This document shows positions 11,879 to 16,111 of a stretch of DNA of 64,000 nucleotides, in pieces. The stretch lies in sequence record OZ035795.1; one strand, written 5' to 3'. The notes below the pieces were generated by a model. That model was given only the letters and a program-made list of their open reading frames with translations. It was not told the DNA's origin and did no database searches. Origin of the DNA: Krischvirus LF73P4. The position numbers were made by a program, and so were the translations under genes. Every line of letters begins with the position of its first letter. Position 1 is the first letter of the stretch.

Positions 11879-12238
11879 TTAGTCACGGGAAGACAACCCA
11901 GCCATAAAACGGCTTAACAGTGTGTCGCGATAAGCAAAGCATAATTGCTTATCAGGGGCAGTATCACAAAGGTTGCGTTTTGTTTTAGCAAAGCTGGCAA
12001 TACTCAGATCCCACGCTCGATTTTTTCGTTTTTCATCTCGACCTTGTTTGTATGCTTCATCAAGTTCGAGCGCGATAAAATCACTACACATGTTATCATC
12101 ATCACAGAAAGTTTTAATGATCTTTTTGTTGATCTCAAATCCTTTGTATTCGAACTTTGGATAAGGGCGCTCATTACTAGCAAGCGCACCAGCCGAGAAC
12201 ATCATAGCAATCATAGCAATTATTGTCAACTTTTTCAT
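11879..12238 (-). CDS. hypothetical secreted/periplasmic protein (119 aa)
   Basis: signal-peptide-like N-terminus MKKLTIIAMIAMMFSAGALA; several Cys. Confidence 0.55.
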   Translation of the reverse strand: MKKLTIIAMIAMMFSAGALASNERPYPKFEYKGFEINKKIIKTFCDDDNMCSDFIALELDEAYKQGRDEKRKNRAWDLSIASFAKTKRNLCDTAPDKQLCFAYRDTLLSRFMAGLSSRD

Positions 12239-12245
12239 ATATTCC

Positions 12246-12836
12246 TCAATAGCGTTTAGTCTTAAGAATGCCTTTACTCTTTAGATGGTTAGCCTTTTTT
12301 AGTACATCATCAGCATAACCTAACCCGGCTTTATAGTTCCATCCAGCATTGTAAGAAGCTAGCGCGAGTCGGATATTACCGTTTCGAACATCCAGCCAGT
12401 ATGCTAACTCATCCATCGCGTAGAATGCAGAAACCTCGCGATTCATGATAAAGTTGATAGTCTGGCGATCACTCATTTTAACACCGCGCTTTGCATTTTT
12501 CGCTTTCACCGTTTTAAGGTAATTTTGAAATAATCCATAAGCATGATGATTTTTCTTTGGTGCTAAGTTTGCACCCGCGCTTGATTCTTGCCATGCGATA
12601 CCCGCCAGGATGTGACCTAAACCCTTTCCGTTATAGCGAATATTCGGATGGTCCTTTTTCAACTTACCGCTTTTCTCGAATTGCTCGCCGTATTGATAGG
12701 CGAAATGTAAATTATCTAGTTGGTGTGCTGTAAAGTTGTCTATCGGCGCTTTTTTGATCGGTGCGCTAGTCGATGCGTGTGTAGCACCAACGGCTAGTGA
12801 CAGACTCAATACTATCGCTTTTAGAACTTTTAACAT
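12246..12836 (-). CDS. secreted lytic transglycosylase (SLT-domain protein)
   Basis: signal peptide; AWQESSAG, YGLFQ and ASYNAG motifs of the SLT catalytic domain. Confidence 0.75.
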   Translation of the reverse strand: MLKVLKAIVLSLSLAVGATHASTSAPIKKAPIDNFTAHQLDNLHFAYQYGEQFEKSGKLKKDHPNIRYNGKGLGHILAGIAWQESSAGANLAPKKNHHAYGLFQNYLKTVKAKNAKRGVKMSDRQTINFIMNREVSAFYAMDELAYWLDVRNGNIRLALASYNAGWNYKAGLGYADDVLKKANHLKSKGILKTKRY

Positions 12837-12870
12837 TAATTTCTCCTGTTTGGCTTAACTTTCTGATTCC

Positions 12871-12899
12871 ATAATATAGCCCTATCACCAGAAAGTCAA
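12871..12899 (-). promoter_or_regulatory. sigma70-type promoter
   Basis: minus strand TTGACT (12894-12899), 17-nt spacer, TATTAT (12871-12876). Confidence 0.55.
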
Positions 12900-12922
12900 G
12901 CATTATTTTTAACCAATTTCCA

Positions 12923-13345
12923 TTATTGGTCTACCTTCAAAACAACCGCCGACATTTTACCCGCCAGTCGTTTTGGATTCTCTATAATCATTCGGCAGCA
13001 TAGACCGTGATATGGCTTACCCTCTTCGATTAGATCTACTGTCATCCCGATCCACATGTTACCGTCAGTAATTTCTAATCGATTCGGACGGTCTTCCATT
13101 TTCAGGAAGTCGAAGATCTCCGGCAAACGAGTTTCTATCTTATTGAATAGTTCCATTGTCTTATGTTCATCGATATGACGATCGGTTAGACGGTCGATCA
13201 TATGCGGACTAAAGCGAATGAAAATATACTCACCATAACCATCATTCAAGCACTTTTCTTTGATCTGTGCATTGGTTTTGCGCATTTCGGTTTCGAAGAA
13301 TCTACGCAGCTTACTACGGCGAACATGTACGTTAATTGTTTCCAT
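12923..13345 (-). CDS. hypothetical protein (start adjusted to ATG 13345, 140 aa)
   Basis: SD2-like context AGAAAGGATAATAAA-ATG; ORF track 12923..13417. Confidence 0.5.
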   Translation of the reverse strand: METINVHVRRSKLRRFFETEMRKTNAQIKEKCLNDGYGEYIFIRFSPHMIDRLTDRHIDEHKTMELFNKIETRLPEIFDFLKMEDRPNRLEITDGNMWIGMTVDLIEEGKPYHGLCCRMIIENPKRLAGKMSAVVLKVDQ

Positions 13346-13349
13346 TTTA

Positions 13350-13685
13350 TTATCCTTTCTTAAACAAATTGCGAAGCCAGTATACAAACGGGATTTCTTT
13401 AAACTTGAACTTGTCAATAGTTAATTCTTTAGTAGCAAGATGAATACCATAAGCATCATGTGTAACTATATGCCATTTTCTATAGTCCAAATGTGAACAA
13501 CCGTCTGGATCTAGGTTAATAAGAGTTTCTCGCTCACTAGAATTATTTTTCCACAATTTTGTAATAGGATCGCACATAATTCGACCTAGCGTACCATGAA
13601 TAATCTCACAACGGTAAAGTTTTCCAGCAGTGAGATAGGCGCACCCGTCATAGTCGGTATAAACAAACACTTCTTTAACACTCAT
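13350..13685 (-). CDS. hypothetical protein, CSHL-motif family paralog (start adjusted)
   Basis: SD1 and promoter 13717-13745; motif DPDGCSHLDYRKW shared with two upstream ORFs. Confidence 0.5.
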   Translation of the reverse strand: MSVKEVFVYTDYDGCAYLTAGKLYRCEIIHGTLGRIMCDPITKLWKNNSSERETLINLDPDGCSHLDYRKWHIVTHDAYGIHLATKELTIDKFKFKEIPFVYWLRNLFKKG

Positions 13686-13716
13686 TTTAATACTCCTTTG
13701 TTGTTTCGATGGGGGT

Positions 13717-13745
13717 ATATTACTACCCCCGATCATGGGTGTCAA
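13717..13745 (-). promoter_or_regulatory. sigma70-type early promoter (PeSL-like)
   Basis: minus strand TTGACA (13740-13745), 17-nt spacer, TAATAT (13717-13722); GGGGGTA/TACCCCC palindrome. Confidence 0.65.
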
Positions 13746-13991
13746 CTACTTTTTCAAGATTTTTTTGAGTGCATTCCAAAGACCTTTATTCCCAGGTTGT
13801 TTTGGTTCTTCGATCAGTGTCCATGTTCGACCGTCTAAGTGTGCACAATTTTTAAGACAAATAAAAATCTGGTGTCCCTTATCATCACGGATATAACCAC
13901 TATTCGCAAATCTTTCATGTGGTGTATATTCATACAGTGTATTAGGTGTAATATACTTGCGGTTACTATAAGGTGTCATCACATACATCAT
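13746..13991 (-). CDS. hypothetical protein, CSHL-motif family paralog
   Basis: motif NCAHLDGRTW; ATGA overlap with upstream gene. Confidence 0.5.
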   Translation of the reverse strand: MMYVMTPYSNRKYITPNTLYEYTPHERFANSGYIRDDKGHQIFICLKNCAHLDGRTWTLIEEPKQPGNKGLWNALKKILKK

Positions 13992-14182
13992 GGTACTAAC
14001 TCCCAACGATCACCGCGAAGATGAGAACATCTACCATCAAGAAGTATTGTAATACGATAACCTATATCATCTTTGATGTAACCGATTGTCGGTGGATTTT
14101 CGTCGTCTCGTGCCGGGGTAAAATCATACATCTTTCCGGGCGTAATATCTTGTCCTTTATTGCTATTGGTATAAACTTGCAT
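13988..14182 (-). CDS. hypothetical protein, CSHL-motif family paralog
   Basis: motif GRCSHLRGDRW; SD AGGAGATTAAGAAA-ATG. Confidence 0.5.
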   Translation of the reverse strand: MQVYTNSNKGQDITPGKMYDFTPARDDENPPTIGYIKDDIGYRITILLDGRCSHLRGDRWELVP

Positions 14183-14203
14183 TTTCTTAATCTCCTATAT
14201 TAA

Positions 14204-14902
14204 CTAACCACGGGTATAGTGTTCCAGAACAACTGTCAGATGAATATATTCTAATAGATCTTTCCAAAAGTCAACATCTGGTTCTTCCGGCATACCGTTT
14301 TTCTTTGCCTCTTCACGCGAGAGTTTAACACGCTCGTAGAGATCTTTCAATTCTTCCCGCACATTATCAAAGGTTCTTTCTCCTAACTTACACGCTAAAA
14401 TAGAAGAACGTCGCGCGAGCGGGAATTGTAGATCACCTGTCTGATAGATTTCAAGTAGCTGATAACCAACACGCAGAGCATGAGAAAGATCTTTCCAGTT
14501 ACTGAAATACTTTTCAGATTTGGCTACCTGCTTTTTGAGATAGCCAGACAAACCCCACATACCAACATGATAGAATTTATCTCGATGTGTTCGGATGTAT
14601 TCCCATTCTCTGGAGGATTCAATCAACATGTTACTAGGAGCGTGCACCATGTCAATAGCGCCGATATCGCCTTTACATGCCAGATTGATAAACCGTTTTA
14701 GACTGAACATATTAACATCAATATCGTCTTTGGTGTTCTTGATACCTTGACCGCTAGTGCTTTGGTCATAGTGTTCTTTCATAGATCCTAAGATAATTTC
14801 TTTCGCAGTCGGAACAAAGATACCACGATAATCTTTATCTGAATTTTCAGTATCAAGGCCGTACAAGTGAGATCCGAAGACCATTTTAACCATTGTATGC
14901 AT
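14204..14902 (-). CDS. predicted nucleotidyltransferase (Pol-beta superfamily fold)
   Basis: N-terminal GSHLYGLDTENSDKD matches GS-x3-G-x5-SD-x-D minimal nucleotidyltransferase signature. Confidence 0.6.
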   Translation of the reverse strand: MHTMVKMVFGSHLYGLDTENSDKDYRGIFVPTAKEIILGSMKEHYDQSTSGQGIKNTKDDIDVNMFSLKRFINLACKGDIGAIDMVHAPSNMLIESSREWEYIRTHRDKFYHVGMWGLSGYLKKQVAKSEKYFSNWKDLSHALRVGYQLLEIYQTGDLQFPLARRSSILACKLGERTFDNVREELKDLYERVKLSREEAKKNGMPEEPDVDFWKDLLEYIHLTVVLEHYTRG

Positions 14903-14920
14903 AATTAAACCCTCAGTTGA

Positions 14921-15514
14921 TTAAACGTATTCAGCAACAACATTATGTTTAAAATTACCGCTCCTTTTTGGATTTGGATTTTTCAATCGACTATGTATTA
15001 AATTTTTGTTGTATCCGGTTGCTTTAGACGCTTCGCCAATACTTTGATAAACAACACCATTAACACGAATCGGACGAGACTTATTAAACAGTTTATTCAA
15101 TCCGGCATCATATGCATGGTTTTGGTTTTCTTGCCTCGTTGCGATCTCAAGATTCCAAACACAATTACAAGATTTTACCCCACTTTTATGATTAATTTCA
15201 AGACCTTCACAATCACCTATAAAGTGTTCAGCAACTAGTCTATGAATATAGCTATATTTCTTACTTTCCCCATCATGCAAGCATACATTATAATAACCAT
15301 CACCAGCGCGTTTAGGTCGGAGTAGTTTACCTTTAACACGTTTTATAGTAGGGAACTCACCAAATTGATTTCTCTGGATAAACGGAATCTCGCGGTCTAA
15401 TGAACGGATTCGACCATAGTTAGACACTTGATAAAAACTTTCATATCCTTTAATTGGCTTCCATATCTCAGGGATTTCTACACCATCAATAACAACAAGT
15501 TTAAATTCTTCCAT
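14921..15514 (-). CDS. HNH homing endonuclease
   Basis: NUMOD4-like YQVSNYGRIRS, HNH core HRLVAEHF ... EINHK ... N..NLE; sits directly after grcA terminator without own promoter. Confidence 0.8.
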   Translation of the reverse strand: MEEFKLVVIDGVEIPEIWKPIKGYESFYQVSNYGRIRSLDREIPFIQRNQFGEFPTIKRVKGKLLRPKRAGDGYYNVCLHDGESKKYSYIHRLVAEHFIGDCEGLEINHKSGVKSCNCVWNLEIATRQENQNHAYDAGLNKLFNKSRPIRVNGVVYQSIGEASKATGYNKNLIHSRLKNPNPKRSGNFKHNVVAEYV

Positions 15515-15525
15515 ATTTCACCTCA

Positions 15526-15557
15526 TAAAAATAAAGCCAACCCTTTCGGATTGGCTT
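15526..15557 (-). terminator. rho-independent terminator (minus strand)
   Basis: AAGCCAACCC-TTTC-GGATTGGCTT hairpin followed by T-run on minus strand. Confidence 0.65.
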
Positions 15558-15562
15558 GTCGA

Positions 15563-15976
15563 TTACATAGATTCCGTAAAGGTACGGGTGATAATATCAA
15601 GTTGTTGTTCGCGTGTCAAGGCGTTGAAGCGGGTAGCATAACCACTGATTCGAATTGTAAGCTGCGGGTACTTCTCAGGATGTTCAACCGCATCAAGAAG
15701 AGTCTCCCGACGCAGTACATTCGCGTTGAGATGATGACCCGCGTTACTATTTACCCCGTTATCAATTGCTAAAGGACGGAAGCTAGTTGTGTGCAGTGCC
15801 AGCGAATCGACGTCTTCTGCGGTGATCACATGGTCTTCTGCGAAAGTTTTACTAACAATTACTTTAGCGCCGATCAGTGCTTTCGGTTCGGATACCAGAA
15901 TCATAGGCGCGAAGTGTCCACCAATAATAGTACCTTTATGCTCACCTTTCATGATTTGAATTGCTTTAAATTCCAT
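15563..15976 (-). CDS. grcA: autonomous glycyl radical cofactor (GrcA/YfiD-like)
   Basis: C-terminal [10 protein letters not shown] glycyl-radical motif and [27 protein letters not shown] segment match E. coli GrcA. Confidence 0.9.
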
Positions 15977-16111
15977 AATTCACCTCTTATAGATCAGGAC
16001 GTTCGTCATTAATTTTACCAACCAAAACACCATAGAGTTTATCAGGTTGGACTTTACGATTCTTATTGATTGTAGAACGGAATCGACGAGCTACGCTATC
16101 TTTATTTTTCA

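Follow-up and report, generated by a model that had tools for sequence, protein, structure and literature searches.

Sequence evidence for three ancient paralogs of a widespread phage family with a predicted SH3-like fold between the nucleotidyltransferase and regB genes of Krischvirus

Three small ORFs, here called A, B and C, which follow one another between the genes for an nrdC.11-like nucleotidyltransferase (NTase) and the endoribonuclease RegB of Krischvirus, are, judged from their sequences, real paralogs of ancient duplication with a similarity far above chance, and they share a domain of about 60 residues that is predicted to be an SH3-like small β-barrel. Identity, paralogy, fold class and accessory status, taken jointly, can be regarded as highly probable. 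Our overall reading, which we consider somewhat probable, is that these ancient paralogs with their predicted SH3-like barrel would be early accessory binding modules serving host takeover or counter-defence. The binding-module mechanism within it is drawn from fold class, charge and evolutionary behaviour, and is put forward tentatively, as a plausible suggestion.

The locus

The window, i.e. the whole 64-kb stretch of DNA that was analysed, is a genome segment of a Krischvirus (RB49/JSE/Phi1-like, Straboviridae), a T4-type coliphage. Over positions 12800-15600 it shares 98.8% identity with Escherichia phage AV108, and this part matches 58 Krischvirus genomes, in which the locus was found as well, and every gene of this neighbourhood is carried by the minus strand. 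The three minus-strand ORFs called here by the first-pass annotation were recovered at the same positions (Table 1); their RB49 counterparts are all annotated as hypothetical. Beyond vs.1, the order of transcription continues with vs and then tk.4, which encodes a Macro domain.

Table 1. Genes and sequence signals around ORFs A, B and C, in the order of transcription (positions are those of the window).
Feature	Position	Strand	Length (aa)	Profile matches	Remarks
vs.6 (glycyl-radical protein)	15976..15563	minus			
HNH/NUMOD4 homing endonuclease	15514..14921	minus			
nrdC.11-like NTase	14204..14902	minus	232	Pfam RlaP PF10127 3.6e-14; PHROG 388 4.1e-79	neighbour upstream of ORF A
ORF A (RB49ORF097c)	13988..14182	minus	64	PHROG 6261	bare family domain, A type
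ORF B (RB49ORF096c)	13746..13991	minus	81	PHROG 15978	family domain with C-terminal tail
Promoter-like site, sigma-70-type (T4 early-type)	13717..13745	minus			TTGACA-17 nt-TAATAT, in the B-C spacer
GC-rich hairpin	13711..13730	minus			GGGGGUA-GUAAUA-UACCCCC, overlaps the -10 hexamer
ORF C (RB49ORF095c)	13350..13685	minus	111	PHROG 6261	most diverged copy
regB endoribonuclease	12923..13345	minus	140	Pfam REGB_T4 1.1e-48	neighbour downstream of ORF C
vs.1 (SLT-domain protein)	12246..12836	minus		Pfam SLT 6.6e-6	closes the conserved block NTase, family, regB, vs.1

A phage family shared by the three ORFs

BLASTP aligned A with B at 40% identity (E=6e-13), and C with A at E=1e-3 and with B at E=2e-3. 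PHROG 6261 was matched by A (1.8e-27), C (4.7e-37) and B (6.5e-6), and PHROG 15978 by B (8.4e-60) and A (8.6e-8). A leave-out HMM of 53 family members, none of them above 42% identity to A, B or C, gave 75.7 bits for B, 69.2 bits for A and 47.4 bits for C, the next-best of 1025 window ORFs reaching 8.6 bits, and the window holds exactly three copies of the family. The tandem paralogy proposed in the first-pass annotation is thus borne out, both by the BLASTP alignment of A with B and by HMM scores of 47-76 bits. As repeats or gene conversion at the DNA level within the window amounted to short chance matches only, the duplications are old.

When 1.84 billion cluster representatives were searched exhaustively by HMM, 165 proteins were returned at E≤1e-3, mostly of 58-75 aa. 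The family therefore comprises 165 or more clusters at 50% identity, almost all from phages; cultured members outside Krischvirus include the Vibrio phages helene 12B3 and eugene 12A10. It was this search that made the wider family visible: a word-index protein search reached close Krischvirus relatives only, and an alignment search with the A type yielded one IMG/VR locus and four metagenome loci, mostly Krischvirus. PHROG 6261 is matched by 139 and PHROG 15978 by 120 of 149 relatives. Both are annotated as 'unknown function', being automatic clusters that come without a function, a structure, a domain definition or a paralog relationship. Neither A nor B nor C matched Pfam at E≤1, the hits in Pfam and NCBIfam being chance matches (Tetrabrachion, cyclophilin and FosA fragments) far below cut-off, and the family domain is covered by no model of either collection. 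A literature search found no paper on these ORFs, the PHROG identifiers or the family, and no member with an experimentally known function or partner was found.

The motif from which the paralogy had been proposed is meaningful as well, as it turned out to be part of the signature of this family, T-x-G-K-x-Y ... I-x-D-D-x-G ... C-x-H-L-x(3-5)-W. In ORF A numbering, the hallmarks are T14 (95%), G16 (84%), K17 (92%), Y19 (99%), I36 (88%), D39 (90%), G41 (85%), C52 (90%), H54 (84%), L55 (84%) and W60 (99%). ORF A carries all of them, ORF B departs from them only at positions 16 and 17, where it has N and T, and ORF C keeps T, G, K and Y as well as C, H, L and W, an insertion replacing its DDxG hairpin. 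The motif as first worded therefore has to be narrowed for ORF C: GYI(K/R)DD.G is shared by A and B, but C reads GRIMCD followed by a hairpin insertion of about 10 residues, and at C(S/A)HL(D/R)G(R/D)xW it reads CSHLDYRKW, with Y replacing the G.

In some GenBank records, ORF C is labelled as the RegB endoribonuclease. This identity was rejected, as ORF C has no Pfam match and no similarity to RegB; BLASTP against the RegB of the window gave no alignment at E≤100, and the true regB product scores 1.1e-48 with REGB_T4.

Several relatives (P0023, P0025 and P0034) contain two to three tandem copies of the domain within a single polypeptide, and others bear C-terminal extensions of various kinds, among them one DUF3850 and one weak Tad2-like match (E=7.8e-4). 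Such tandem domain copies and fusions to varied C-terminal domains would suit a modular binder.

Predicted barrel fold and conserved residues

The AlphaFold2 model of ORF A (pLDDT 89, pTM 0.74) is all-β, with a short 3-10 helix at C-S-H-L. Foldseek of this model against the PDB gave nothing significant, a structure search of BFVD led to uncharacterised phage proteins only, and the family profile had no match among PDB sequences even at E≤10; the model of ORF C was poor (pLDDT 47) and was excluded from the fold search. The likeness to SH3, Tudor and KOW domains is one of fold class only, without a sequence relationship: no Pfam model of these domains matched A, B or C, one of 149 relatives weakly matched Tudor_5 (9.5e-4), and the canonical SH3 peptide-binding signature is absent from the family. 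On the predicted barrel, T-x-G-K-x-Y would occupy the end of the RT-type loop and strand 2, I-x-D-D-x-G the distal hairpin, and C-x-H-L...W the 3-10 helix and strand 5, the signatures acting as determinants of fold and surface.

Cys52 and His54 are among the best-conserved positions (90% and 84%), and many members, ORF C included, have an additional Cys at position 10, so that C-x-H-L might be read as a catalytic Cys-His dyad or a metal site, and the proteins as tiny enzymes or zinc proteins. However, about 20 of 165 members have F, Y or W at the position of His54, and 13 have Ser at that of Cys52, such replacements affecting about 20% of the members; they include the class-2 B alleles of Krischvirus, which read CAYL and are yet under purifying selection. 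Cys10 is optional, being absent in 60% of the members, and does not covary with the C52/H54 pair, which is found in 74% of the members with Cys10 versus 77% of those without it. No enzyme family was matched, and the 3-10 helix at which the motif is predicted to lie is a classic packing element of SH3-like barrels. Therefore, from the substitutions, the missing covariation, the CAYL alleles and the predicted location at the 3-10 helix and strand 5, the C-x-H-L...W motif seems to serve the structure or the surface of the protein and neither catalysis nor metal binding, and a Cys/His active site is highly improbable.

With a median pI of 5.0 and a median net charge of -3, and with 9% of the members above pI 8, the core domain is acidic, which argues against generic nucleic-acid binding. 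The C-terminal tail of ORF B, GLWNALKKILKK, is cationic and amphipathic (μH 0.66, net charge +6), and ORF C has, besides its insertion at the distal hairpin, a C-terminal extension of 35 residues with an amphipathic helix at its end. Cationic amphipathic C-terminal helices are thus present in B, C and the B-type orthologs P0018 and P0024 (μH 0.47-0.66).

Alternatively, the domain might bind nucleic acid in the manner of Tudor, KOW or Sm-type small barrels, or a nucleotide or other small ligand as the sponge proteins Acb2 and Tad2 do. The near-invariant T14, K17, Y19, D39 and W60 would fit a small-ligand pocket as well, a point that counts against the binding-module reading. The acidic core speaks against such a binder, as do the lack of sequence similarity to Acb2, the lack of a profile match to any solved protein and the weakness of the Tad2-like match, seen in a single member; we consider it unlikely.

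Signals at the gene junctions

ORF A starts 21 nt after the stop codon of the NTase gene, and B begins within the end of A, its ATG sharing an ATGA (13991-13988) with the stop codon of A. A spacer of 60 nt lies between B and C, and the stop codon of C lies 4 nt short of the regB ATG. The three ORFs had been described as translationally coupled; this applies to the overlapping A/B pair but not to B and C, whose spacer holds a promoter-like site and a hairpin. GGAG precedes the ATG of all three ORFs, in ORF A by 11 nt. GGAG is the motif cleaved by RegB in early mRNAs and is unremarkable for T4-type early genes.

Both hexamers of the promoter-like site in the B-C spacer are invariant in 12 Krischvirus loci and the bases between them vary; the site probably drives the transcription of ORF C and regB. 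The hairpin that overlaps its -10 hexamer is likewise invariant in the 12 loci, and two uncultured T4-like phages (L005 and L009) have comparable hairpins 5' of regB. A region of 101 nt around it folds with -21.9 kcal/mol (z = -3.0). It lacks a T tract, and in the G37-3 record it is labelled as an ARNOLD terminator. It could form on read-through transcripts of A/B only. Rfam gave no match over positions 12000-16500. The Shine-Dalgarno sequence of regB, GGAU, sits within the end of ORF C, in agreement with the report that RB49 regB uses a GGAU Shine-Dalgarno sequence and has its own early promoter (PMC3014915). From the junctions, the promoter-like site, the hairpin and the Shine-Dalgarno signals we infer two early units, A-B, possibly together with the NTase gene, and C-regB, the early timing being deduced from these sequence signals and from what is known of T4.

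Divergence among close relatives

The window was compared with eight other Krischvirus genomes for DNA identity, dN/dS and dS. The NTase gene keeps 97.4-98.4% DNA identity to the window (dN/dS 0.03), regB 95-99% (dN/dS 0.05) and ORF C 94.6-99.4% (dN/dS 0.13), with a mean dS of about 0.09 in all three cases. For ORF A the identity goes down to 85% (dN/dS 0.22, mean dS 0.20) and for ORF B, which falls into two allele classes (77-98%), down to 77% (dN/dS 0.21, mean dS 0.48), and the flanks of A/B hold 95-99%. A, B and C are therefore genuine proteins under relaxed purifying selection, and A and B are hotspots of divergence within Krischvirus, whose alleles predate their flanks, which suggests mosaic exchange. 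In phage FL04, a frameshifting deletion of 14 nt disrupts ORF A and the NTase gene is intact. One metagenome scaffold shows a chimera of A and B followed by C and regB; the chimera stands at the end of a contig and may have arisen in assembly. As copy number, alleles and integrity differ between close relatives, the three genes look like dispensable accessory genes with a fast turnover.

Neighbouring genes as candidate partners

Uncultured T4-like phages outside Krischvirus have the family in several related arrangements, with one, two or three copies among T4-like relatives. The order is family, NTase, family, regB, vs.1 in L005/6, where the NTase stop codon overlaps the start of a family gene and, in L005, a divergent copy stands on either side of the NTase gene; it is NTase, family, regB, vs.1 in L009/10, and NTase, family, family up to the contig end in L007. 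In L008, an ORF of 85 aa is placed between a family copy and regB, and the 152-kb contig L011 has HNH, family, regB, one other gene and family, without an NTase gene. The regB-adjacent copy of the single-copy lineages is of the A type, five relatives (P0019, P0020, P0021, P0022 and P0026) being 44-59% identical to ORF A. B-type orthologs are P0024, which is encoded in L007, and P0018, and no orthologs of ORF C were found outside Krischvirus. This distribution would fit a history in which a single A-type copy is ancestral, the B type is older than Krischvirus and the C type is specific to Krischvirus.

Outside these lineages the linkage is not seen. No family member is present in positions 1-68 kb of T4, which include nrdC.11 and regB, and T4 nrdC.11 accordingly has no family neighbour. 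In tblastn with four family queries, T4-like matches were confined to the 58 Krischvirus records, with none in Tequatrovirus, and cultured regB-bearing T4-like phages outside Krischvirus, T4 included, had no family match. In about 15 family loci of phages that are not T4-like, the scanned flanks, which spanned 4-6 kb at most and often much less, contain neither an RlaP/NTase gene nor regB; the family members there sit amid small accessory ORFs, sometimes in two copies.

The position just downstream of the NTase gene had led to the proposal that the three proteins function together with the nucleotidyltransferase, for instance as dedicated partners, i.e. substrate adaptors or regulators, of the RlaP/nrdC.11 enzyme in RNA repair or nucleotide transfer. 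The NTase gene does directly precede a family copy in Krischvirus, L005/6, L007 and L009, family copies flank it in L005, and the surroundings are RNA-centred, with RegB, the valyl-tRNA-synthetase modifier Vs and the Macro-domain protein. Against a dedicated partnership stand L011, with a family copy and regB but no NTase gene, the T4 genome with its nrdC.11 and the loci outside the T4-like phages described above, the dN/dS of A and B, which is 5-7 times that of the NTase gene, and the pseudogene of A next to an intact NTase gene in FL04. The case for joint function is one of synteny, and the linkage to regB is at least as consistent as that to the NTase gene; a dedicated NTase partner thus appears improbable.

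A second candidate is RegB itself, for which the copy upstream of regB might be a regulator, whether it inhibits RegB like an antitoxin, sets its specificity or, as a leader, determines its dosage by translational coupling. A family copy is found directly 5' of regB in all T4-like lineages whose next gene downstream can be seen (Krischvirus, L005, L009/10 and L011), with L008 as the exception. In Krischvirus, the short C-regB junction, the regB Shine-Dalgarno sequence inside ORF C and the conserved promoter-like site ahead of C can all be read in this sense. RegB has further been likened to the toxins YoeB and RelE, and its production is under tight control (PMC3014915). With ORF C directly upstream of regB behind a shared promoter-like site, the layout is indeed that of a type II antitoxin, and the single-copy relatives share the adjacency of family gene and regB; however, no antitoxin-type DNA-binding domain (RHH, HTH or AbrB) was detected in A-C. 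The regB phages cultured outside Krischvirus lack a family match, the family is frequent among phages that have no regB, and the adjacent copy is of the A type in some lineages and of the C type in Krischvirus, so that there is no conserved partner ortholog. A RegB regulator is therefore quite unlikely.

Judged from these gene orders, the NTase association would be a clade-specific syntenic block that is no stronger than the regB association, and inherited gene order through shared ancestry accounts for both linkages. That the adjacency to NTase and regB genes persists across several diverged T4-like lineages nevertheless makes a functional link conceivable and weighs against the reading as free-standing binding modules.

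Discussion

In the mechanism that we propose, A, B and C would be old duplicates within a widespread, phage-specific family. A and B would follow the NTase gene, translationally coupled to each other and expressed early, and ORF C would be co-transcribed with regB from its own promoter. The proteins may act as stand-alone, non-enzymatic binding modules whose target, in takeover or counter-defence, would be a protein of the host or of the phage, with B and C adding a cationic amphipathic tail to the core domain. The slot between NTase and regB genes would then be an inherited gene order of one T4-like sub-clade, and not evidence of a shared pathway.

Two named systems offer a comparison. In T4, unrelated genes lie in the slot between vs.6 and regB, namely vs.3, vs.4, which encodes the counter-defence sponge Acb2, and vs.5; phmmer against all window ORFs revealed no homologs of the three, with nothing below E=0.2. 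Vs.4/Acb2, a cyclic-nucleotide sponge directed against CBASS, resembles A-C as a small early accessory protein in an equivalent slot, but is unrelated to them in sequence, and the analogy is positional only. The second is Gp54 of phage Bas11 (PDB 9axb), a small barrel that is non-essential, has no known function and triggers the defence protein CapRelSJ46; even close homologues of Gp54 fail to trigger CapRel (PMC11578894). Gp54 is similar to the family in fold class and lifestyle, but differs in its sequence (6% identity, no homology to the A-C family being found), its rare six-stranded barrel, its phage group and its genomic context.

A more far-reaching version of the binding-module reading takes the A/B/C array as a set of diversifying binders, in which each paralog hits a different immunity or RNA-metabolism protein of the host, or one of them tunes RegB. 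This would explain the allelic hotspots of A and B, the changes in copy number and the location in the Acb2 slot, and we regard it as rather unlikely.

The ORFs had already been catalogued as hypothetical proteins and PHROG clusters; what is added here is a definition of the family, a predicted fold, a history of its duplications and its behaviour as a hotspot. Three 'hypothetical proteins' of 58 Krischvirus genomes are thereby turned into a defined domain family, and the propagated misannotation of ORF C as an endoribonuclease is corrected. On present evidence, this is for now an ordinary uncharacterised phage accessory family. As small early barrels yield anti-defence factors or triggers of defence, with Acb2 and Gp54 of Bas11 as examples, the family is nevertheless a reasonable candidate for a functional screen, and if the array is indeed a set of diversifying binders, the SH3-like domain would represent a new and widespread family of inhibitor or adaptor modules in phages.

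Variation within the array

ORF A, the first of the three paralogs in transcription order, carries a 14-nt deletion in phage FL04 (L019 1388-1585, orthologous to 13988-14182 of the window), which leads to a frameshift after about 27 codons. As B, C, the nrdC.11-type nucleotidyltransferase and regB are intact in the same phage, ORF A is dispensable. An ENA scaffold (L039 45-296) encodes a family member of 83 aa, P0005, that joins the N-terminus of A to the C-terminus of a class-2 B, one of the two ORF B allele classes in Krischvirus. The junction is the GYIKDD(K/I)GY segment common to A and B, and the chimeric gene is followed by C and then regB. This may be explained either by an unequal crossover cutting the array to two copies or by an artefact of metagenome assembly, the latter being possible because the gene starts only 45 nt from the contig end.

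Features of the array and its surroundings (window coordinates)
Feature	Position	Strand	Description
Promoter-like site and GC hairpin	within 13711-13745	-	B-C spacer; TTGACA-17-TAATAT
B tail	13746-13781	-	Cationic amphipathic helix GLWNALKKILKK; hydrophobic moment muH 0.66
C tail	13353-13394	-	Cationic amphipathic helix IPFVYWLRNLFKKG; hydrophobic moment muH 0.47
HNH/NUMOD4 homing endonuclease	14921-15514	-	Between vs.6 and nrdC.11

The C-terminal helices of B and C resemble membrane-targeting or protein-docking helices; such a cationic amphipathic terminus was also detected in the B-type orthologs P0018 and P0024 and is absent from ORF A. In JSE (L001 3924-4193), ORF B is annotated with 270 nt compared to 246 nt, and a 1-nt indel close to its 3' end results in an altered, longer C-terminal tail (...KKNLEKV...). 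In the spacer between B and C, the GC hairpin overlaps the -10 hexamer of the promoter-like site, and both signals are unchanged across 12 Krischvirus loci, the intervening bases being variable. This hairpin may mark the point at which the upstream transcript has its 3' end or is processed. A GC hairpin also closely precedes the regB Shine-Dalgarno sequence in L005 and L009, two uncultured T4-like relatives called single-copy.

Some deposited genomes (GenBank records JK32, 011D4 and Skers) name ORF C 'endoribonuclease' or 'RegB'. Since ORF C (13350-13685) gave neither a Pfam REGB_T4 match nor BLASTP similarity to RegB, this assignment is an annotation error. Upstream of the array, the vs.6/nrdC.11 junction is polymorphic among Krischvirus genomes: the HNH/NUMOD4 homing endonuclease is carried by AV108, MIZ4, G37-3 and JK32, is replaced by another homing endonuclease of 531 nt in JSE and 011D4, and is missing from RB49, KFS-EC and kaaroe, whose matches span just 76% of the query.

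The family in other phages

In the family alignment (ORF A numbering), 11 of the 13 members with serine instead of Cys52, the first residue of the C-x-H-L motif, have a cysteine at position 10, which could stem from the lineage of these members or be a compensatory substitution. In the uncultured T4-like relative L011, from which the nucleotidyltransferase is absent, the gene for the anti-CBASS nuclease Acb1 (PF23474; 1509-1949) shares one run of small early genes with the family-regB pair and lies about 4 kb upstream of that pair. On a high-GC IMG/VR contig (L033 3896-4810), two family copies about 350 nt apart are flanked by terminase-large-subunit-like and portal-like ORFs and adjoined by a dUTPase-like ORF, identities that were read by eye. 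The multi-copy arrangement of the family domain recurs in unrelated phages.
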